Virus record (IMG/VR): IMGVR_UViG_3300011724_000029
Location: 1-32,000 of that record
DNA: 32,000 bases
Source of the DNA: a virus
Direction: 5' to 3' (one strand)
Below are positions 355 to 20,717 of the stretch, piece by piece (position 1 is the first letter of the stretch; each line of letters starts with the position of its first letter). The position numbers and the translations under genes are program-made. The notes beneath the pieces are model-generated. The model ran no database searches. It had not been told where the DNA came from and saw only the letters and a program-made list of their open reading frames with translations.

Positions 355-630
355 CTAATATTCAGTATCATTAACCTTCAAAATATCTAAAAAATGAACT
401 TTATGAACATTGAAGTATTTGTCTTTGATGTGTATTAGCTTAGTGTTTGTGTCCATGTTTGTGACTATACCCTCTAAAGGTTCATCATGTTTATAGATTG
501 TAAAAACCTTGGTCTGCTTTTCCTCCATCACTTCAGTTAGTGTATTAGCGATTTCTTCTAAGTCGAATTCGTCACGATCCATGTGCTTAGGTTCTTTCTT
601 TTTAGTAGGCGTTTTTGTTTTAGCTGCCAT
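355..630 (-). CDS. Small hypothetical protein, first gene of the LexA-box operon (Lys-rich N-terminus; C-terminal half loosely YolD-like)
   Basis: ORF track 355..639. GGAGTGG lies 7 nt before the ATG at 628..630. Positioned directly downstream of the promoter/LexA box. Confidence 0.5.
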   Translation of the reverse strand: MAAKTKTPTKKKEPKHMDRDEFDLEEIANTLTEVMEEKQTKVFTIYKHDEPLEGIVTNMDTNTKLIHIKDKYFNVHKVHFLDILKVNDTEY

Positions 631-665
631 ATTAACCACTCCATTCAGAACATTTGTTTGTATAT

Positions 666-846: not shown

Positions 847-860
847 AGAACAAACGTTCT
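847..860. promoter_or_regulatory. Second LexA Cheo box AGAACAAACGTTCT
   Basis: Perfect GAAC-N4-GTTC starting 8 nt downstream of the TATAAT at 834..839, so it covers the predicted +1. Confidence 0.7.
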
Positions 861-964
861 TTTAAATGAAATATCTGAACAAATTTCTTTGATATTGATT
901 ATCATATTAACCCAAAAAGGTTTACATATATGCTTCCTTGATGTAACTTAATGATATTACATAG

Positions 965-989
965 TTCATATATACAATGTATATATGAA
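965..989. promoter_or_regulatory. Perfect 25-bp palindrome (12-nt arms), candidate operator
   Basis: TTCATATATACA-A-TGTATATATGAA. It ends 14 nt before the GAGAGGAGGAG RBS of the 1020 gene. Confidence 0.45.
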
Positions 990-1019
990 CAAATCGTCCT
1001 TTAGAGAGGAGGAGTTTAT

Positions 1020-1457
1020 ATGGTTGGAATGAGAGCATTAGCTGACCACATAATTGCAATTGGAGCAAATAAAAATTTATCTGTTACAAACTTACAAGTA
1101 CAAAAGGTTATGTTTTTTGCTTTAGGATTTCATTTACAAGATAATGGCATTGATTCTCTTGCTAAGGAAATTTATGATATGCCTTTTGAAAAATGGAGAT
1201 ATGGTCCTGTAGTTGAAACTATATATTATGAGTTATGTCAATATAAAGACAAGCCGATAACAGAAGAAGGAATATACACAAATAAATTATCAAGCTTCGA
1301 TTCAAATATAGAGAAATTATTGCAGATTAACGTTTTTGATCTAGTAGAACTATCACACCAATTATCATCATGGGCAAATTATAAAACAGAAATATTAGAT
1401 CGCAGGTCTGTTGAAAGCTATACTTTAAAAGAAATTTGGGAAGATTTCACAAGATGA
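1020..1457 (+). CDS. Panacea / DUF4065 (SocA-, GepA-like) domain protein, putative PanA-type antitoxin
   Basis: 'LQVQKVMFFALGFHL' and 'EKWRYGPVVETIYYEL' match the two conserved blocks of DUF4065. AGGAGG lies 7 nt upstream of the ATG at 1020. Stop TGA at 1455..1457 overlaps the next ATG. Confidence 0.75.
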   Translation: MVGMRALADHIIAIGANKNLSVTNLQVQKVMFFALGFHLQDNGIDSLAKEIYDMPFEKWRYGPVVETIYYELCQYKDKPITEEGIYTNKLSSFDSNIEKLLQINVFDLVELSHQLSSWANYKTEILDRRSVESYTLKEIWEDFTR

Positions 1458-2533
1458 ATGAAATAAATGAAGAGCAATTTTTAGAGCGTTTCAGAGATTT
1501 ATTACTTAGTTTTCCTAACTTACTGAAATCAGAATTAAGTACTGGTGTTAGAATAGAAGGGTTAAACAACCTTCGTCAAAATCTTGACTCATTATCACCA
1601 ATCCCTAATGTTAGACCTAACCAAAGTGTACCACTTTTACAAACTCGAATTGAGGAGTTTATTGAGACTATTTCAAAAACAAAATTTGATAACAAATTAA
1701 TTCCTTATGATAAAATAACTGAATTTGTTTTTATTGAAACACCAGAAGAATTATACTTTGAATTTACTACTAGATTAAAAACTTATGGTAAACAATATTT
1801 CCAAAGACTATCTGAGGTGTCTGCCACTGTAACTAGTGGTGAAACTGAAACAAATTTAGATTCCGAACAAGCAAGCATTAATGCGTCTGATTGTGAAAAG
1901 GACTTTTATAGAATTGTCAGACATATTGATCTCGCGTTGATACAGATTACAAAGTTTGCTAGTACAAAAATAGAACATTTGCAATCTGAATATGATAATT
2001 TAAAAGAGCAATACTTGGAATTAAATACTCAACTTACAAATTTAAAAGACGAGGCTGAACTCCAATATAAAAATATGCTAACACAATATATTTCTATTCT
2101 TGGGATTTTTGCAGCTATATTGATGGGATCTTTTGGAGCGATCCAAGGCTTTTCAAATATTTTTGCCAAGGCTGACAAAATACCTTTAGGTAAATTATTA
2201 ATAATAAGTTCTGTTGGCGGTTCATCTGTAATTCTAATCTTATTTTTCTTATTAAACGGTATAGCTAAATTGACTAATAGAAGTTTATCTAGTGTTACTG
2301 ATGAAAATGCTACTCTTTTAAGAAAACATCCAACAATCGTCCTTTCACATGGAATATTGGTGAGTATAACTTTAATAGGTGGAGCATTAATATTAAGTAA
2401 TATTGAATTAAATTTTGCTTGGGAAGGACTTTGGTGGGTAGTCCCAGTCTTATGGGTTGCTTATTTTATAACATCAGTAACAAAAAACAATCCATTATTT
2501 TTTATGAATATATTTAAAAATAAGCGAAAGTAG
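1454..2533 (+). CDS. 359-aa coiled-coil + four-TM membrane protein, putative cognate toxin/effector (no recognised family)
   Basis: The ATG at 1454..1456 forms an ATGA overlap with the upstream stop; the track start at 1436 is TTG. Coiled-coil stretch 'LQSEYDNLKEQYLELNTQLTNLKDEAELQY' is followed by four hydrophobic segments (about nt 2090..2490). AT-rich. Confidence 0.7.
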   Translation: MNEINEEQFLERFRDLLLSFPNLLKSELSTGVRIEGLNNLRQNLDSLSPIPNVRPNQSVPLLQTRIEEFIETISKTKFDNKLIPYDKITEFVFIETPEELYFEFTTRLKTYGKQYFQRLSEVSATVTSGETETNLDSEQASINASDCEKDFYRIVRHIDLALIQITKFASTKIEHLQSEYDNLKEQYLELNTQLTNLKDEAELQYKNMLTQYISILGIFAAILMGSFGAIQGFSNIFAKADKIPLGKLLIISSVGGSSVILILFFLLNGIAKLTNRSLSSVTDENATLLRKHPTIVLSHGILVSITLIGGALILSNIELNFAWEGLWWVVPVLWVAYFITSVTKNNPLFFMNIFKNKRK

Positions 2534-2560
2534 GTGAAAACTACTTTCGCTTATTTTTTT
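2522..2560. terminator. Bidirectional rho-independent terminator between convergent genes
   Basis: AAGCGAAAGTAG (2522..2533) pairs with CTACTTTCGCTT (2541..2552). A T-run follows on the plus strand, and ATTTTTAAAT follows the hairpin on the minus strand. Confidence 0.8.
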
Positions 2561-3215
2561 ATCGTTGAGAAATAATAATTTTTAGTCCTTCAAAATCCCC
2601 ACCTGTCATCGTACCCTGGTCAAATTTCTCAAGCCACGACTTGTCAATCTTCCCTTTATCTACAGCTTGTTTAATGTAGTCACGTACTGCATTTTCCGTT
2701 GTTGGATTTGTAAATTTCATAAAATCATCATCCTTTTCATTTGGTTTATCTTCAACAAATAGCTGTACTTTTAATTTGCTATTAGATGGAACAATTACTT
2801 GTCCTTCTAATTTATAGCCTGCTGGCACCTTCCATGTCGTAGGAATTTCAAAATGAGGTGCATCATACTGTCCTACTGGCCAATAGCCTCCCCAAGTGAT
2901 GCCTAGCTTTTTAGCAATTGCCCCTACCTTCCCTAAAATAGAAATATCATATAAATTTCTTGGCGGTGCCACAGCAATATCCCATGCTCTACGTGATGTA
3001 TGATTACTATTACGCGTCCATGTTACTACTTGTCCAGGTCGCGATCTTCCTTGCTCATACAAATAATTTTGGCGAGCTTGGCTACGGTATGTTTCTGTGA
3101 TGAAAACAAAGTCTATGCCTGCCTTGTAGCATTCTTGAAAGAGTAGTCGGCATGCTGTTTGGGCTGCTGCAGTTAGTTCACTTAAATCGCGGCATGTAGT
3201 TGTAACACTATTCAT
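2559..3215 (-). CDS. Endolysin, peptidase M15 (VanY/CwlK-like L-Ala-D-Glu peptidase) with C-terminal putative wall-binding region
   Basis: 'ETYRSQARQNYLYEQGRSRPGQVVT', 'SNHTSRRAWDIAV' (H-x6-D) and 'APHFE' match the VanY-type zinc peptidase. ATGA overlap with the holin stop. Confidence 0.8.
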   Translation of the reverse strand: MNSVTTTCRDLSELTAAAQTACRLLFQECYKAGIDFVFITETYRSQARQNYLYEQGRSRPGQVVTWTRNSNHTSRRAWDIAVAPPRNLYDISILGKVGAIAKKLGITWGGYWPVGQYDAPHFEIPTTWKVPAGYKLEGQVIVPSNSKLKVQLFVEDKPNEKDDDFMKFTNPTTENAVRDYIKQAVDKGKIDKSWLEKFDQGTMTGGDFEGLKIIISQR

Positions 3216-3472
3216 TTCGCATCATCCTTTGGTTTTTCGTATTTTAATGCCTGTTTGCTATCACTCGTACCTTCTGTAGTTGGATCAACTACCACACCAA
3301 CTAGAACTAAAAAAGCGAGTACAGTGTTAAATAACTCTGTAACTCGCTCGTTATAAATTGTTGTGTCGTAGCCTACTAGCGCCCCAATTTGTTGCACTAA
3401 TAATAAGAGTAGCGCAAACGCACCAATTAAGAATGGTTTGTGTTTTAATCGTACTTTCCAGTTGATTTTCAT
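3212..3472 (-). CDS. Holin, phi LC3 / Phage_holin_1 family
   Basis: 'MKINWKVRLKHKPF' N-terminus, two hydrophobic segments, 'VVDPTTEGTSDS' motif. Lies immediately upstream of the endolysin. Confidence 0.8.
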   Translation of the reverse strand: MKINWKVRLKHKPFLIGAFALLLLLVQQIGALVGYDTTIYNERVTELFNTVLAFLVLVGVVVDPTTEGTSDSKQALKYEKPKDDAK

Positions 3473-3490: not shown

Positions 3491-3739
3491 CTAAAAGATG
3501 TGTTTTTCCATGCGGTCCATACGGCCTTCAAGTGACGTTAAGCTTTTACTGATCTCCCGCATGGCATTGGCTTGCTCACCTTGTGCCTCTGTTAATGTTT
3601 CTAAATTTTTAAGCAATCGTTCTTCCCGTTTATTGGAATTCCAAAATACATATACAACTAAGCAAATACACAATATCGACCACACAACTTGCGAGTTTGC
3701 TATCTGACTTGCTGTTGTTACCGTTGTTACTGGATCCAT
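3491..3739 (-). CDS. BhlA/UviB-family holin-like protein
   Basis: Single N-terminal TM ('VVWSILCICLVVYVFW') followed by 'KREERLLKNLE...' charged coiled coil, the same architecture as SPbeta BhlA. Confidence 0.65.
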   Translation of the reverse strand: MDPVTTVTTASQIANSQVVWSILCICLVVYVFWNSNKREERLLKNLETLTEAQGEQANAMREISKSLTSLEGRMDRMEKHIF

Positions 3740-14052: not shown

Positions 14053-15057
14053 TTATTTTAATTTGTAATCAAATTTCACAATACGGATTGCCTTTGGTTC
14101 GTATACACGTCCCCAGTTATCAGCTAAAGCAACCTCTGCATTTGAAGGTGTTGGGCCTGCAACAGTTGTGTTTTTAAATTTAACGCCTCGTGGGTGTAAT
14201 ACAAACGCTTGACGGTTGATAAGGATATCATCGCCAGCTAGTGAATCACGATCTGTTTCTACAGCCTCTGGGTGGAATCCATTACCTAAACCGATAGCAC
14301 CTTCACCAAAAAGGTATGATGTATAAACATCACCATTTACTGGGTGGCCATCATCAACAATTACGCGGCGACCCATATAAGTAGGAATTTGTACTTTCCC
14401 CTCTGAGTCAGGGATAAATTCGATTAGGTTTTGCTTTTGTAAATGCGTGTATGCTGCACTATGCATTGAGATAGCAGTTAGTAGACTAGAAGCATCACCT
14501 AGTTTTTGTTTAGCATCAAGGAATGTAGAACCTGATAAAACTGCATCGTTTCCTGTTAATGTTGAAATATCATGCGTATTATCAGCCATTGTTGGTGAAG
14601 CAAATACCCCTTTCAACATTGCGAACAAAAGCGCTTGTCGGCGACGTGCCCAATAAGTAGCCACTAAATCACCGATAGCTGCCATAGGGTCAGAACCAGC
14701 TAATACATGCGCTAAATCATTCGAACTCCAAGCTTTACCACGTAAGAATAGTGCCGCAACATCTTGTCCAGCCGTGATTTTCCCAGGTGTTAATGCATCA
14801 TCATCTGAAAGCACTTCATCTTCACCATCAAGATCTTCCCAGTACGGCATGTTAATAAGAATACCGCCACCTTGCGCTAATGCGTCTAATTCTGGATTAT
14901 TTGAGATAATACCAGATGATTGTAGTGCGGAAAGTTCCATAGTGCGTTGAATAACATAAGGGTTGAATACTTCTGGGACAATCACATCGCTGATTTTTGT
15001 CTTTGCGAACATTTGAATGTCTAATTTCATCAGTAAATTAAATTTTGTTGTAATCAT
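14053..15057 (-). CDS. Major capsid protein
   Basis: 334 aa directly after the scaffold gene. N-terminal 'KLDIQMFA' pro-sequence motif. Followed by a strong terminator. Confidence 0.8.
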   Translation of the reverse strand: MITTKFNLLMKLDIQMFAKTKISDVIVPEVFNPYVIQRTMELSALQSSGIISNNPELDALAQGGGILINMPYWEDLDGEDEVLSDDDALTPGKITAGQDVAALFLRGKAWSSNDLAHVLAGSDPMAAIGDLVATYWARRRQALLFAMLKGVFASPTMADNTHDISTLTGNDAVLSGSTFLDAKQKLGDASSLLTAISMHSAAYTHLQKQNLIEFIPDSEGKVQIPTYMGRRVIVDDGHPVNGDVYTSYLFGEGAIGLGNGFHPEAVETDRDSLAGDDILINRQAFVLHPRGVKFKNTTVAGPTPSNAEVALADNWGRVYEPKAIRIVKFDYKLK

Positions 15058-16184: not shown

Positions 16185-17234
16185 TCACCCTGCTTTCTCA
16201 TATTTTTCTTTCCATTGAGGAAACTTCATACTTGCTGGAACAAGCTCATTCTTTCCTGTTTTCGGATTTCTTGCCCTACGCTGAAGGTTCTTGAGTGTAT
16301 CTGGTCCGAAATATGCTCTTGTCGTTGAACGACAAAAAACATGCATTGGTGGCATGTTAACACCTGGCACAGCATCTTTCACTTTGTATACTTTACCGTC
16401 TTGTTCTTGGCATATATTAGATGTTTTATTATCAAGCGTTGCCATAAACATGTACTTGTCGATTTCAGCCTCAATATAGCTTTCCATTTCAGCAGCATTT
16501 GCCATGTAGGTAGTTTCTGTACGTATTAACCGGTTAGCAGCATGTTTTCCTACATTCATTCTTTCCATCAAATCAGTACGCATCTTGTTGATGCCTACCC
16601 CTGACATAAACCCGGCTGCAATAACTTCGGTTACTTGTTTTGCAAGTACATCTGTATTGCCCCATATCCGTTGACTAAAATGTTCACCACTCCAAGGATT
16701 TTTAAGAATGGTTTCGATTGTTCTTGTAGGCACGGTTGCGAATTCAAATCCTAACCCTATCCCTTTTTGTACATCAAACATGGTTCTGAAATAGGCATTC
16801 TTTATTGTTCTCATGTAACCTGCCGTACTCGCTCTTATTTCGGCATCAGCGACTATCTTGGATTGTAGGTAAGCATTCTCTTTCAACGCCTCTAAACGCG
16901 TAATACGAGCACCGTACGCTGGAGCATTCAGTCGATTAAGCATTTGTCGCCTTATCTTAGGATCACCTATATCTTTTATTTTGCTTTTAATTTCATTCCA
17001 TTCAGCTTTTGATATAGGTTCATTTAATACCTTCTTAGCTTCGTCAATAGTTAGATTGCCATCTTTGGCAAACTTCTCGAATATCTTATCAATACTCTTT
17101 TGCATATCCTTTTGTGCCTTATCATAAGCATTCGTAACTGTGAGGACAGTTGAATCAGCAGAACGATGATACTCGGCCATACGCTCCATCGCTCTTTTAT
17201 CCCAATAGGCATTAGTCCGTTGTTCCATCTGCAT
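16185..17234 (-). CDS. Minor head protein, SPP1 gp7 / Mu F family
   Basis: Lies immediately after the portal gene. The C-terminal region 'TLDNKTSNICQEQDGKVY...PPMHVFCRST' is typical of Phage_Mu_F. Confidence 0.8.
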   Translation of the reverse strand: MQMEQRTNAYWDKRAMERMAEYHRSADSTVLTVTNAYDKAQKDMQKSIDKIFEKFAKDGNLTIDEAKKVLNEPISKAEWNEIKSKIKDIGDPKIRRQMLNRLNAPAYGARITRLEALKENAYLQSKIVADAEIRASTAGYMRTIKNAYFRTMFDVQKGIGLGFEFATVPTRTIETILKNPWSGEHFSQRIWGNTDVLAKQVTEVIAAGFMSGVGINKMRTDLMERMNVGKHAANRLIRTETTYMANAAEMESYIEAEIDKYMFMATLDNKTSNICQEQDGKVYKVKDAVPGVNMPPMHVFCRSTTRAYFGPDTLKNLQRRARNPKTGKNELVPASMKFPQWKEKYEKAG

Positions 17235-18594
17235 TCACATACTTTGAAGTATCAATATTGTAGCCGAATTCTTGACGCGCTCTTTCCAAATCGTCCTTGA
17301 GTTGCTGTTTCAACTTTTTGATTTCTTCTGTCGTGTCCTCTACAAACGGCAAGATAGAAAGCAAAGTCTCATTGCTAACCAATCCTATTAATGAAACAAT
17401 TTCTTGAATAGTAAGCTCATTTTCTGGAAGGTTACGGATCATGGTAATTTTAGCATCTGAAACATCAACGGCTTTAGCTTTTACTTTCAGGATATTAGCA
17501 AACAACTTCAAACGTTCTCGTAGCCCTTGGATGTAATAACGCTCTTTGGTAACTGCCAATTGTTCAAGACCAAATAATTTATATTTCATGGCAACACCAG
17601 AACTATTAGAGGCGAAGTTTTCATCTGTTAGGTTTGGAACCATAGAAAACTCATGAATGTCTGATTTAATGGCATCCTTCAAGACCTCTACTTCGGTTTC
17701 ATTAAGATTTTTGATTAACCATCCGGCATCTGCACCTTCTGGAAGTTCGAGAATCTTGTGCTTTTTTATCATCCTAGCAGTATCTGTTTGTTCTTCCTCT
17801 GTATCTCCGAAAGAAACACCAGAAACCTTCAATAACGCATCTACTAGTTGTTCCTTATCGTTTACACGGTCAGATTGGAGCAAGTTATAAGCATCGATGA
17901 GGCTGATTTGTTGTTCAAAGTCACCTTGTTGCTCCTCGTTGTTCCAAAACTCTGTGACAGGGACGGCACCATAATAGTGGTTTTTAATATCTTGCATTTC
18001 AAAATCAGTTAAAGTGGAGCCAAAATATGAAACTATCAAATCTTGAGTGTAAACATTGATGTTATAGCCAATTACAGCATTATTGATATCTCTTTTTTCA
18101 TAGTAATGAACACCAAATAATGATCTGTATTCTACCGTATCATCAACAACTAAGAATATTTGTCGCGGATCTATAACAGTTACCTTTGGAATAGGAACTT
18201 CATCGCTACTCATAAAGTACAGCTCTAACCCTATACCGAATATTGATAGGTCCTTTGACATTTCTGAGTCATGGGAAACAATATCAATTTCTTTGTACAC
18301 TTCCATTATCTCGTCAATTTGTTTACCCTCGTATTTCACCGGCTTGCCAGAAACATATCCAACTGCAATATCCGTAATGTACTTCGCGTGGTTAGCCACA
18401 AGCTTGTTATTTGGCAGCCCCATATCCTCACCAGCAAGAGGACGATTTAAAATTGCATGCTTGCCTTTGTAATACTTTTCGAGCTTATTTAATCGCTCAA
18501 GACCTTCCTGGTGCTCTTTAATACAACTTGCTATGAGTGCAACTGGAATGTCATTAATGTCATCAATTAAATCTCTGTCACGAATAATAGCCAT
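17212..18594 (-). CDS. Portal protein (SPP1 gp6-like)
   Basis: 460 aa following TerL with a 4-nt gap. The overall sequence pattern fits SPP1-type portals. Confidence 0.85.
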   Translation of the reverse strand: MAIIRDRDLIDDINDIPVALIASCIKEHQEGLERLNKLEKYYKGKHAILNRPLAGEDMGLPNNKLVANHAKYITDIAVGYVSGKPVKYEGKQIDEIMEVYKEIDIVSHDSEMSKDLSIFGIGLELYFMSSDEVPIPKVTVIDPRQIFLVVDDTVEYRSLFGVHYYEKRDINNAVIGYNINVYTQDLIVSYFGSTLTDFEMQDIKNHYYGAVPVTEFWNNEEQQGDFEQQISLIDAYNLLQSDRVNDKEQLVDALLKVSGVSFGDTEEEQTDTARMIKKHKILELPEGADAGWLIKNLNETEVEVLKDAIKSDIHEFSMVPNLTDENFASNSSGVAMKYKLFGLEQLAVTKERYYIQGLRERLKLFANILKVKAKAVDVSDAKITMIRNLPENELTIQEIVSLIGLVSNETLLSILPFVEDTTEEIKKLKQQLKDDLERARQEFGYNIDTSKYVNADGTTD

Positions 18595-18598
18595 TTCA

Positions 18599-19891
18599 TC
18601 ACCTCAAACCTAACGCTGATTTTTTGCTTACTTTCAGTTTTACTTGACCTACTAAAATCGTATTAACGAAATATCTATCGCCATCTAATTGGTGGTCGTT
18701 TTGTTTAATTGGCTTATCTTCTCCGCGTTCAGCAGCTTTCGGGTCCCACATATAGGATGAAAACTCACGAAACGTTTCTTCGCATACATCGTTATATAAA
18801 ATCTTGCCCTCGATAAGAGCTGACGCTAGGTTACGTATGCCGTCTAACACTTCATTCTTGGCTTGTATTACGTTATATCTTGCTTGCTTTAATGCAGCTA
18901 TAAATGATGCAGCAGAAGGGTCAACGATGATTGCACTTGGTTTAATCGCACCTAAAAACTCTTTCATATCAGCAACGTATTCTTGGTCAGTTTTCTGTTT
19001 ACTTGTTTTACGGCCATCGTAGTGATACTCTTTCACCTTGTACCAAACGCCATCAAAAAAGCCCCACAGACCAAAAGTTGTAGGGTTCTGTGTCCCATAA
19101 TCGACACTTACATAGTATTTAGAGTATTTCCGTGGTTCTGTTTTAACACTGTGCAAGGCTTCATCAAACATATCGTAAATAAGGCCTTCTGCAAGCACCC
19201 ATAAACCAAGGATGAACCGTTGATAGAACACACCTTTATACATACGCTTATAACGCTCTTTGATACGTTGTGACAGTGACAAGTTGTCATCCATCGTAAA
19301 GTGTAAGTGCAGCATGTTCTTATCTTCTAATTGATCCAGATACTCTAATTTGAACCAATGATATGGCCCAGCAGGGTTACAGTTAAACCAGAACTTAGCA
19401 CCATCAACAGAACATCGAGCTGTTGCTTGGTTAACGAATGATTGAGGCATAAGTGCCACTTCATCAAAGAACATTCCAGCGAGTGTAATACCTTGGATAA
19501 GGTCTTGTGAAGCCTCGTCTTTTCCTCCGAATATATAAAAATAGTTCACTTTGCCATTTCGAGTGACAGTGAACATGTTTTCGGAACGATATTCTTTTAC
19601 TTTGTAGCCTCTGGACATCAGCATTCGTTTTAATGGCTTGAATACGTTACGACGGAACGAGCCGATTGTTTTACCAGCCATACCAAGGTTCTCATCCTCA
19701 AACGTCTCCATTGCCCACATAACGAACGATAGAGACATGACGACCGTTTTCCCTGCACGAACAGAACCGTCGCAAATAATACCGTCCTTGTCCTTGTGAG
19801 GGGAATTGGATTGCCACCATTTGAGTACTTTAAGTTGTTTCTTACTAAAAGGTTTGAATGTGAATAGAGCAGGTTTCTTTCGTTTACTCAT
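18599..19891 (-). CDS. terL: Terminase large subunit (PBSX/XtmB-like)
   Basis: Walker A 'GSVRAGKT' and 'FFDE' Walker B region. Size 430 aa. Overlaps TerS by 8 nt. Confidence 0.9.
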   Translation of the reverse strand: MSKRKKPALFTFKPFSKKQLKVLKWWQSNSPHKDKDGIICDGSVRAGKTVVMSLSFVMWAMETFEDENLGMAGKTIGSFRRNVFKPLKRMLMSRGYKVKEYRSENMFTVTRNGKVNYFYIFGGKDEASQDLIQGITLAGMFFDEVALMPQSFVNQATARCSVDGAKFWFNCNPAGPYHWFKLEYLDQLEDKNMLHLHFTMDDNLSLSQRIKERYKRMYKGVFYQRFILGLWVLAEGLIYDMFDEALHSVKTEPRKYSKYYVSVDYGTQNPTTFGLWGFFDGVWYKVKEYHYDGRKTSKQKTDQEYVADMKEFLGAIKPSAIIVDPSAASFIAALKQARYNVIQAKNEVLDGIRNLASALIEGKILYNDVCEETFREFSSYMWDPKAAERGEDKPIKQNDHQLDGDRYFVNTILVGQVKLKVSKKSALGLR

Positions 19892-20717
19892 CCCAATTCA
19901 CTTCCTTGCCTTCCAGTGCCTCTAAGAAACCATCATCCTCGAATTCATCTTCGTCATCACCATTCTCTTTACGAATAGCGATTTTTGATAATTCGATGTC
20001 TGTTTTCGTTTTCTCCATGTTAAGTTGCATCTGTTCAAGTTTAAGTCTGCGCTCGTCATCCTGATCCGCCATCTCAACAAATTGACGAATAGAAGAACGC
20101 AACTCCCCAATTGCTCTAGATTGAGCAGTGAGTAGTTGAGCCTGTCGTTCCCATGCGAATTGGAATTCATATTCTTCTTCTGTTACAGCCTTTTCTACGC
20201 CTCCACCATCCTCTTTAGAACGTGGATAGTATTCGTACTTTGCCTTTTTGAGCTCCTTAATTATTTCGTCTTTAGATTCGACGTGCATAATTCTTTGGGC
20301 CCTTATGATTGCAGCATACTGTATTTGTATCTGATCCCAGATTAAATCGGCTGGAGAACGTTCGTTCATTGCTTCCATGATTTCGAGTGTTTCCTCCGGC
20401 AGAAACTTCGAGAAGAAGCCGTGCTTCTCTGCGATTGAGTTGCGTTTTGGAAACTTAGGTGTTGGATTGGGATTACCTCTATTCCCCTTAGCATTGTCAT
20501 TGCCTTTTGGGGCTCCAACTTCATTTGGAACGTTCCGTTCATTTGATTGGAGCGTTCCATTCAATGTTTCGTCCCATTTATCTTTATTTTTCCATCCTCG
20601 GACGGTACCTTCACCTTTACCAAGTTGTACAGCAATATCTTTAAGTGGGATATCACCATTATGTTCTTTGTAAATTTCAAAAGCTTTATCTCGGTTTGGA
20701 TCTCTTTGTCTAGCCAT
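19884..20717 (-). CDS. terS: Terminase small subunit
   Basis: N-terminal HTH 'IPLKDIAVQLGKGEGTVRGWKNKDKW' is typical of Firmicute phage TerS. Lies directly upstream of TerL. Confidence 0.85.
   Translation of the reverse strand: MARQRDPNRDKAFEIYKEHNGDIPLKDIAVQLGKGEGTVRGWKNKDKWDETLNGTLQSNERNVPNEVGAPKGNDNAKGNRGNPNPTPKFPKRNSIAEKHGFFSKFLPEETLEIMEAMNERSPADLIWDQIQIQYAAIIRAQRIMHVESKDEIIKELKKAKYEYYPRSKEDGGGVEKAVTEEEYEFQFAWERQAQLLTAQSRAIGELRSSIRQFVEMADQDDERRLKLEQMQLNMEKTKTDIELSKIAIRKENGDDEDEFEDDGFLEALEGKEVNWDE

Follow-up and report, generated by a model that had tools for sequence, protein, structure and literature searches.

Among the toxin–antitoxin (TA) systems in which a toxin, PanT, is neutralised by a Panacea (DUF4065) protein, PanA, the described relative against which the locus of this work can best be set comes from Helicobacter sp. 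13S00482-2. Among the PanTs validated by Kurata et al. (2022, PNAS; PMC8832971), three target the membrane, and one of these is that of this strain (WP_095295403.1), which has an N-terminal coiled-coil-like region and C-terminal membrane helices, depolarises the E. coli membrane and causes no uptake of SYTOX Green, that is, forms no large pores. In Dataset S1 of that paper it stands in toxin cluster T4, whose members come from Solibacillus, Listeria, Brochothrix, Staphylococcus, Pontibacillus and Paenibacillus, and further from lactic acid bacteria, Clostridia, Campylobacterota and two streptococcal phages; within T4, depolarisation was demonstrated, by DiSC3(5) and SYTOX Green, only for the Helicobacter member. 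The formation of PanA–PanT complexes was reported in the same paper (PMC8832971), and direct neutralisation by stand-alone Panacea domains has been described as well (PMC10440598). In this work, we have used computational approaches to analyse a pair of overlapping genes, here called panA (gene 1) and panT (gene 2), in a 32,000-nucleotide (nt) stretch of viral DNA, positions 1-32,000 of the record IMGVR_UViG_3300011724_000029 (hereafter the window, whose coordinates are used throughout). We propose, with a probability that we put at roughly three in four, that this pair is a prophage-borne type II PanAT operon of the T4 cluster.

By sequence homology, PanT is a member of the T4 toxin cluster and not a new effector. 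Among 5.8 billion proteins searched, 90 relatives of gene 2 were retrieved, mostly from Bacillales. Exact-sequence look-up identified P0061 (E=9e-43) as WP_127584829.1, P0072 (E=4e-35) as WP_026801853.1, and P0096 and P0098 as WP_099091143.1 (Staphylococcus edaphicus) and WP_090793204.1 (Pelagirhabdus alkalitolerans), and all four accessions are found in the T4 toxin list of Dataset S1, together with their PanA partners. Genomes, one per species, were also scanned with the peptide motif [QN][FY]I[STA]ILGIF, the most conserved of the family, and the 47 loci obtained include that of Helicobacter sp. 13S00482-2, where the open reading frame (ORF) found is exactly WP_095295403.1. When a profile of 34 gene 2 relatives, nearly all from Bacillales genomes and metagenomes (alignment A1), was compared by hhalign with a profile of 20 toxins from Campylobacterota, Clostridia and phage P9 (A3), which includes the validated PanT, the two matched over 170 columns with a probability of 99.6% (E=2e-24), and the alignment covers the N-terminal motifs PY..IT and K[IL]..H..L, the coiled coil and the first two transmembrane helices (TM1 and TM2). 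Directly compared by BLASTP, gene 2 and WP_095295403.1 gave E=7e-10. The family is large: when its profile was run against 1.84 billion cluster representatives (clusters at 50% identity), 2,011 of them matched at E<=1e-3, of which 860 reached E<=1e-10. The assignment to T4 is made because four homologues are listed under their accessions in Dataset S1 and the profile–profile match reaches 99.6%. The preliminary description of this DNA had taken gene 2 for a new membrane effector; the remote-homology search that it called for led instead, at 99.6%, to the profile with the validated PanT, and thus to a family that is already published, as is its depolarising activity (PMC8832971). An apparently new effector becomes in this way an assignable member of a published family, and hence it does not merit pursuit as a separate discovery.

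The identity of the upstream gene fits this assignment. Gene 1 carries two conserved blocks, QKVMFFALGFHL at amino acids (aa) 28-39 and WRYGPVVETIYYEL at aa 59-72, which had been read as DUF4065/Panacea motifs from the letters alone, and the Pfam search that was suggested then gave a significant match to PF13274 SocA_Panacea (E=2e-9; 38.8 bits, the gathering score being 25.7) that spans profile positions 1-112 of 113. Among the PHROGs it matches phrog_1281, of unknown function (E=3e-29). The NCBIfam equivalog model of SocA is matched only in part, with 58.8 bits, and since its cutoff of 190 is not reached, gene 1 codes for a Panacea protein but not for SocA itself. No further domain accompanies the Panacea domain, which corresponds to the “noNTD” class of Kurata et al., so that by its domain content gene 1 is a stand-alone PanA.

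The two genes stay together across the family. In all 47 loci of the motif scan an ORF on the same strand lies at most 250 nt upstream of the toxin; in most of them it codes for 140-180 aa and overlaps the start of the toxin gene by 1-32 nt, and some are short or probably truncated. When these 47 candidate partners, the window PanA and the partners from Listeria phage LP019 and Streptococcus phage P9 were scanned against Pfam (n=50), 46 matched SocA_Panacea (PF13274). The suggestion that the pair is of the PanAT type is supported by this conserved pairing and by the PF13274 match above threshold, and the possibility that homologues of gene 2 are never adjacent to Panacea genes, which the preliminary description had named as fatal to its view, is set aside by the neighbourhood survey. 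The pair also occurs in phages LP019, P9 and SpT152. Staphylococcus phage SpT152 (KX827369.1) was considered as a case of a toxin lacking PanA and rejected, as an unannotated Panacea ORF of 146 aa with a GTG start precedes the toxin, overlapping its N-terminal part by 4 nt (L059 2089-2529 and 2526-3041); the toxin gene is split over the ends of the linear record, with its N-terminal part in gene 068 and the rest in gene 001 (L001 10-795), the sequences overlapping. The arrangement in the window is that of a two-gene, same-strand PanAT operon, with the antitoxin upstream, an overlap, a single promoter region and a single terminator.

Two side observations concern the partners. Of the four upstream ORFs that are not Panacea proteins, two match DUF3862 (E=7e-38) and DUF7829; at these loci a toxin-like gene may have a different or displaced partner. 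T4-type PanAT pairs are also common in H. pylori (L044-L049, L052) and C. jejuni (L028, L035, L037), always with an 11-nt overlap, and several of these copies, with toxin ORFs of 148-214 aa and upstream ORFs of 91-100 aa, appear to be truncated, a sign that the pair may be decaying in some strains.

The predicted architecture of PanT is that of a membrane protein with a long helical N-terminus. Neither Pfam, NCBIfam nor PADLOC holds a family that gene 2 matches at significance or threshold, in line with the earlier remark that it has no recognisable motif; the Pfam and NCBIfam matches that do appear (ZapB, GrpE and similar) all lie below the cutoffs and were discarded as coiled-coil noise, and gene 2 does match PHROG 5763, of unknown function (E=1e-27). 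The coiled coil followed by four hydrophobic segments that had been noticed in the translation is recovered both by hydropathy (~aa 211-234, 245-273, 293-315 and 323-344) and by an AlphaFold2 model built with 50 homologues. The model (mean predicted local distance difference test score, pLDDT, 85.8) is entirely helical: residues 6-128 form an N-terminal domain, one helix of 100 residues (138-238) takes the coiled coil straight into TM1, and further hydrophobic helices follow at 245-273, 293-315 and 323-344, in agreement with the hydropathy. In its best heptad register the coiled coil has hydrophobic residues at 14 of 21 a/d positions. A topology with both termini inside would fit PanT, because the TM1/TM2 and TM3/TM4 loops are short and the 274-292 loop and the C-terminus are basic (positive-inside rule). 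Invariant residues in alignment A1 are I215, L216, G217, I218, F219, G228, F264 and L266, and the TM1 signature is shared with the Helicobacter PanT and with gp52 of phage P9.

No solved structure resembling the PanT model was found by Foldseek in the PDB; the best match there, MscK, was rejected as a structural relative (E=0.13, TM-score 0.17). Among predicted viral structures Foldseek returned family members only, and sequence profiles of PanA and PanT matched nothing in the PDB but designed helical bundles. A phage holin was also considered for gene 2 and rejected: no holin family in Pfam, PHROGs or NCBIfam is matched, the only related match, a weak one to the ‘hemolysin’ phrog_1193 (E=8e-4), runs across the coiled coil and TM1, and gene 2 is not a holin by its length, its strand opposite to the lysis cassette, its pairing with PanA and the presence of separate holin genes.

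The features of the locus are collected in the table. The gene coordinates of the preliminary description and the ATGA by which the panA stop and the panT start overlap (1454-1457) proved correct, and so did its statement that the pair runs opposite to the phage gene train, as the ORF survey placed the remaining 28 ORFs of at least 120 aa in the window, all 28, on the minus strand. The strong bidirectional terminator that it had seen after panT is also there; this stem-loop, the sole terminator-like site within 600-2700, is able to work both ways because an A-run precedes it and a T-run follows it. As for base composition, the hand counts on which a marked AT-richness had been based are exact (G+C 15/60 in 1981-2040 against 30/60 in 14101-14160), whereas over whole regions the contrast is milder, 29.8% over 1020-2533 against 37.6% over 2559-32000. 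Across the 32 kb, 1.5-kb windows have a mean G+C of 37.1% (standard deviation 2.5), and the lowest of them lie in ~550-2560, a stretch made up of the module and the intergenic region upstream of it; G+C at third codon positions is 19-20% in the module genes against 26-39% in the phage genes.

Table. Features of the panAT locus and its surroundings (window coordinates)
Feature	Position	Strand	Remarks
panA	1020-1457	+	145 aa, stand-alone Panacea (DUF4065) antitoxin
panT	1454-2533	+	359 aa counted from ATG; T4-cluster membrane toxin by homology
Most conserved PanT core	2084-2272	+	TM1 + TM2 (aa 211-273), with signature Q[YF]I[ST]ILGIFA
Bidirectional intrinsic terminator	2516-2558		18-bp stem-loop, A-run before, T-run after; common to panT and the convergent endolysin gene
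Promoter-like site P1	811-839	+	TGGAAA, 17 nt, TATAAT, TG extension; consensus scan 10/12; putative function
LexA/Cheo box GAACAAACGTTC	848-859		perfect GAAC-N4-GTTC; 8 nt past the -10, 172 nt before the panA ATG; binding predicted
Small leader hairpin/palindrome	890-904	+	TGATA-TTGAT-TATCA
Conserved leader block	919-967	+	GGTTTACATATATG...TTGATGTAACTTAATGATATTACATAGTT; ~48 nt
Perfect 13+13 palindrome	964-990		GTTCATATATACA-A-TGTATATATGAAC; arms 100% complementary; candidate operator or leader hairpin
Shine-Dalgarno of panA	1008-1014	+	GGAGGAG; read in the sequence, kept in the leader alignment
YolD promoter-like site	695-666	-	TTGCCA, 18 nt, TATAAT; scan 11/12; perfect LexA box 672-683 inside
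Two YolD-like genes	1-348, 355-639	-	PF08863 YolD on identical contig L004; divergent from panA
Endolysin (Peptidase_M15_4)	2559-3215	-	Pfam on identical contig L004
Holin-like genes	3212-3472, 3491-3739	-	Pfam on identical contig L004

The region upstream of panA adds a feature to the known picture. Perfect GAAC-N4-GTTC sites number three in the 32 kb, and two of them lie in the 380-nt region upstream of panA (640-1019). The position of the box at 848-859 is kept in 5-6 related loci, and in the closest relatives a perfect box is found upstream of PanA at -173 in a Lysinibacillus and a Sporosarcina locus (L007 and L008), at -169 in a metagenome contig (L053), at -172 in Solibacillus CAU 1738 (L006), once an over-extended PanA start had been corrected, and at -159 in Solibacillus FSL W8-0372 (L056). 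Of the 16 perfect boxes counted in 25 Bacillales loci (207 kb together), 9 are located no more than 300 nt upstream of panA, a zone that makes up 7.5 kb, and in several other loci this zone holds GAAT-type boxes with one mismatch. The TGGAAA...TA(T/A)AAT arrangement of the promoter-like site P1 is aligned in L006, L007 and L053. The third perfect site of the window, at 20356-20367 (GAACGTTCGTTC), lies inside a minus-strand ORF (19884-20717) and is probably a chance match.

Between the box and panA, the leader has changed in the relatives in ways that keep its symmetry. In L006, L007 and L053 the position aligned with the small hairpin reads TGAGA...TCTCA, both sides of the stem being changed and pairing kept. 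The perfect palindrome differs in sequence between the relatives and keeps its symmetry, with three pairs changed on both sides. The ~48-nt block between them is nearly identical in L007 and L053, though the PanA of L007 is only ~58% identical in protein; an exact 24-mer of this block had no match in viral or metagenome contigs. In four of five leaders the panA Shine-Dalgarno is predicted to pair with an upstream UCCUU, a possible sequestering hairpin (995-1014). The comparison covers four to five loci, in which RNA structure and protein operators are not separable on five sequences, and it is suggestive of a leader that is structured and conserved; a search of Rfam with 600-2700 gave nothing credible. 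A search of the published literature found no report linking DUF4065/Panacea to LexA or SOS, and the conserved box and leader, a seemingly unreported feature, suggest SOS-inducible expression of the pair.

The prophage neighbourhood is known from the identical pair on the NCBI contig DAINIJ010000029.1 (GCA_036737995.1). From the host side, the order there is FecCD-type ABC transporter genes, an unnamed ORF, a YhjD-like gene and two YolD-like genes on the minus strand, and then PanA-PanT on the plus strand, followed by the Peptidase_M15_4 endolysin, Phage_holin_1, a BhlA-like holin and the tail genes, all on the minus strand. The preliminary description had placed the pair after the endolysin at the prophage edge. 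The site beside the lysis cassette is indeed one for cargo, but ‘edge’ holds only approximately, since the pair is not the outermost cargo and has the YolD and YhjD genes beyond it. In the window the YhjD-like gene falls beyond the edge (YolD/YhjD module at L004 3831-5122). The layout YolD-YolD-YhjD/PanAT/lysis cassette is found again in L053 and L061 (a metagenome contig and Sporosarcina). The next gene downstream, convergent with the pair, codes for an endolysin in L006, L007, L008, L009, L019, L055, L056/57, L061 and L063, and in L053 the endolysin comes two genes further on; phages P9 and LP019 have the pair right after the lysin gene and in its orientation, and some pairs of the family are sited elsewhere, by a glutamate dehydrogenase, a resolvase or a methylase. 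A megablast of 700-2700 against 50,697 phage records gave no match, and the portal protein (17212-18594) shares no more than ~45% identity with its counterparts in Enterococcus phiFL3A, Brochothrix BL3 and Lactococcus TP712; judged by these comparisons, the window prophage is without a close relative among those records.

Some further observations were made around the pair. Several prophages have, between PanAT and the host genes, the same module of two YolD-like genes and a YhjD-like gene; YhjD and PanAT are adjoined in L055 by a protein of 76 aa carrying a LexA DNA-binding domain, and no Y-family polymerase gene was seen beside the YolD/YhjD modules of the prophages viewed (L004, L053, L055, L061). 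An imperfect palindrome at 700-741 (GCCTAGGCTCAAT...ATTGAGTGCCTAG), preceded by an A-run, lies between the YolD promoter and the promoter region of panA and could be a minus-strand terminator or the remnant of an attachment site.

We propose that the pair works as follows. PanA would be translated first, and PanT would be translationally coupled to it through the ATGA overlap. The predicted PanT would have a helical N-terminal domain in the cytoplasm, followed by a long coiled-coil helix that continues into the first of four membrane helices; free of PanA, it would most likely self-associate through the coiled coil and the conserved, glycine-rich TM1-TM2 hairpin, dissipate the membrane potential and stop growth, as its Helicobacter homologue does. 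PanA would most likely neutralise it by binding directly to its cytoplasmic region, ahead of the membrane helices. Transcription apparently starts from a promoter overlapped by the LexA box, and, if so, the operon would stay repressed as long as the lysogen is undamaged, and DNA damage or prophage induction would induce it. The identity of the Panacea domain, the T4 membership, the conserved pairing, the predicted architecture and the conserved box support the proposal directly. From homology and motif conservation we infer toxicity, neutralisation, depolarisation in the host, LexA control and a biological role, for which phage exclusion or abortive infection, prophage addiction, and SOS-linked lysis or dormancy are candidates. 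The preliminary description had put forward superinfection defence or induction-linked killing as possible roles, and of these a link with induction or DNA damage gains some indirect support from the conserved LexA box.

Several points weigh against this proposal. Over the 125 residues of the direct comparison, PanT shares just 27% identity with the validated toxin, and it has one membrane helix and an N-terminal domain of ~60-70 aa more. The tests of T4 pairs in E. coli have given mixed results (PMC8832971): the Helicobacter pair acted as a TA pair, the phage P9 gp52 was toxic and was not neutralised by its PanA, gp51, and a C. difficile member was non-toxic. Since these precedents are mixed, our confidence in PanAT function is limited. 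LexA boxes are absent from many of the more distant family loci, including that of Helicobacter, which has no perfect box upstream. The intergenic region is shared with the divergent YolD-like operon, itself likely to be under SOS control, and for this reason the box at 848 might serve the regulation of YolD and not of panAT. Finally, none of the defence models in PADLOC-DB 2.0 matches either protein (gene 1 none; gene 2 at coiled-coil level only, E=0.017).

This last result bears also on an alternative that we regard as possible but rather doubtful, namely that the pair serves abortive infection or superinfection exclusion, PanA sensing an infecting phage and releasing PanT, so that depolarisation aborts the infection and the lysogen population is protected. 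The module occupies, in many unrelated prophages and phages, a spot for accessory genes beside the lysis cassette, and its low G+C fits horizontally acquired cargo. At the same spot in S. aureus prophages, PdpSau causes abortive infection with membrane changes (PMC10127798); it was rejected as a relative, for it has a single N-terminal membrane helix and an oligonucleotide-binding (OB) fold, and the analogy is positional and phenotypic. The authors of NetFlax have further proposed Panacea as a sensor and linked TA networks to phage defence. However, the literature searched holds no phage-challenge data for any T4 pair, and a LexA-repressed promoter is ill-suited to a guard that must be present before infection, unless the leader holds a second, constitutive promoter. 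This alternative overlaps with the type II operon that we favour, as it concerns the role of the pair and not its molecular mechanism.

The conserved box allows a further step, which we consider speculative and unlikely as it stands: one Bacillales subfamily would have wired a Panacea-guarded depolariser to SOS, its LexA-repressed promoter and structured leader serving to time holin firing and lysis, or making the pair a TisB-like switch to dormancy or suicide. If the PanAT promoter is LexA-repressed, DNA damage or prophage induction would therefore switch on the depolariser. That the pair is in essence such an SOS-linked helper of the lytic cycle, with PanT setting the triggering time of the holin, or serves TisB-like dormancy of DNA-damaged cells, we find improbable. 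Holins do fire upon membrane depolarisation, and membrane toxins under LexA control exist, TisB among them; in the closest subfamily the conserved box keeps a fixed spacing from the PanA gene downstream of it, and the module lies tail to tail with the holin and endolysin genes, with a terminator in common. The same box, a predicted LexA site, could nevertheless serve the divergent YolD-like genes, most of the distant family members lack boxes, the family members at L013, L017, L020 and L058 are not by lysis genes, and the Helicobacter pair, annotated outside phage regions (‘NotPhage’; Dataset S1 of PMC8832971), counts against a lytic helper. The weakest alternative, a non-toxic membrane protein with a chaperone-like partner (for instance an exclusion protein that blocks injection), whose T4 relatives would be toxic in E. 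coli as an artefact of overexpression, agrees with the non-toxic C. difficile member and the failure of the P9 PanA to neutralise, and multi-pass membrane proteins are indeed often toxic when overproduced, but it is very unlikely in view of the specific neutralisation and depolarisation in the Helicobacter pair, the near-universal pairing with tight overlap that is typical of TA operons, and the extreme conservation of the TM1-TM2 hairpin across phyla, which speaks for a specific membrane activity.

How does the window pair compare with the known systems? In the TisB/IstR-1 system of E. coli, a promoter with a LexA box drives a membrane-depolarising toxin; it belongs to type I, its antitoxin being an RNA and its toxin a peptide of 29 aa, and its likeness to the window pair is one of regulation, by analogy, with no sequence relationship between TisB and PanT. 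If LexA control of some PanAT pairs is true, it bears on the question of what triggers Panacea-type systems. SocAB of Caulobacter crescentus, a type VI TA system in which SocA, the founding Panacea protein, acts as a ClpXP adaptor, shares with the window pair the Panacea domain; the score with the SocA model (58.8 against 190 bits) and the partner, a membrane protein here and not SocB, set the two apart. The PanTs of Bartonella apis/choladocola (T12/D11) and E. coli STEC O31 (T3) are, like the toxins of T4, membrane toxins neutralised by Panacea proteins, but they are small peptides unrelated in sequence, and they form large pores (SYTOX-positive), while the T4 representative does not.

The nearest comparisons lie within T4. 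In Streptococcus phage P9, gp51 and gp52 (YP_001469231.1 and YP_001469232.1) are likewise a phage-borne PanA and T4 toxin, located beside the endolysin where the late genes end; the pair there is on the strand of the lysis genes, whereas the window pair converges with them, and gp52 resembles gene 2 weakly, across the coiled coil, TM1 and TM2 (E=1e-6 when the two sequences alone are compared). The signature Q[YF]I[ST]ILGIFA in TM1 crosses phyla and finds members directly in DNA. With the window pair, the T4 family is extended to a prophage subfamily of Bacillales/Planococcaceae with a long N-terminus and four membrane helices. The window pair is prophage-borne, beside the lysis cassette, and has a LexA box upstream, unlike the ‘NotPhage’ Helicobacter pair (PanA WP_095295401.1 and PanT WP_095295403.1), which is without a perfect box, and the PanT of 270 aa with three membrane helices found in Helicobacter contrasts with the 359 aa, four helices and extra N-terminal domain of ours. 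In both, however, a stand-alone Panacea antitoxin lies upstream and overlaps the toxin gene, and both toxins have a helical N-terminus, a coiled coil and C-terminal membrane helices, together with the motifs PY..IT, K[IL]..H..L and Q[YF]I[ST]ILGIFA.

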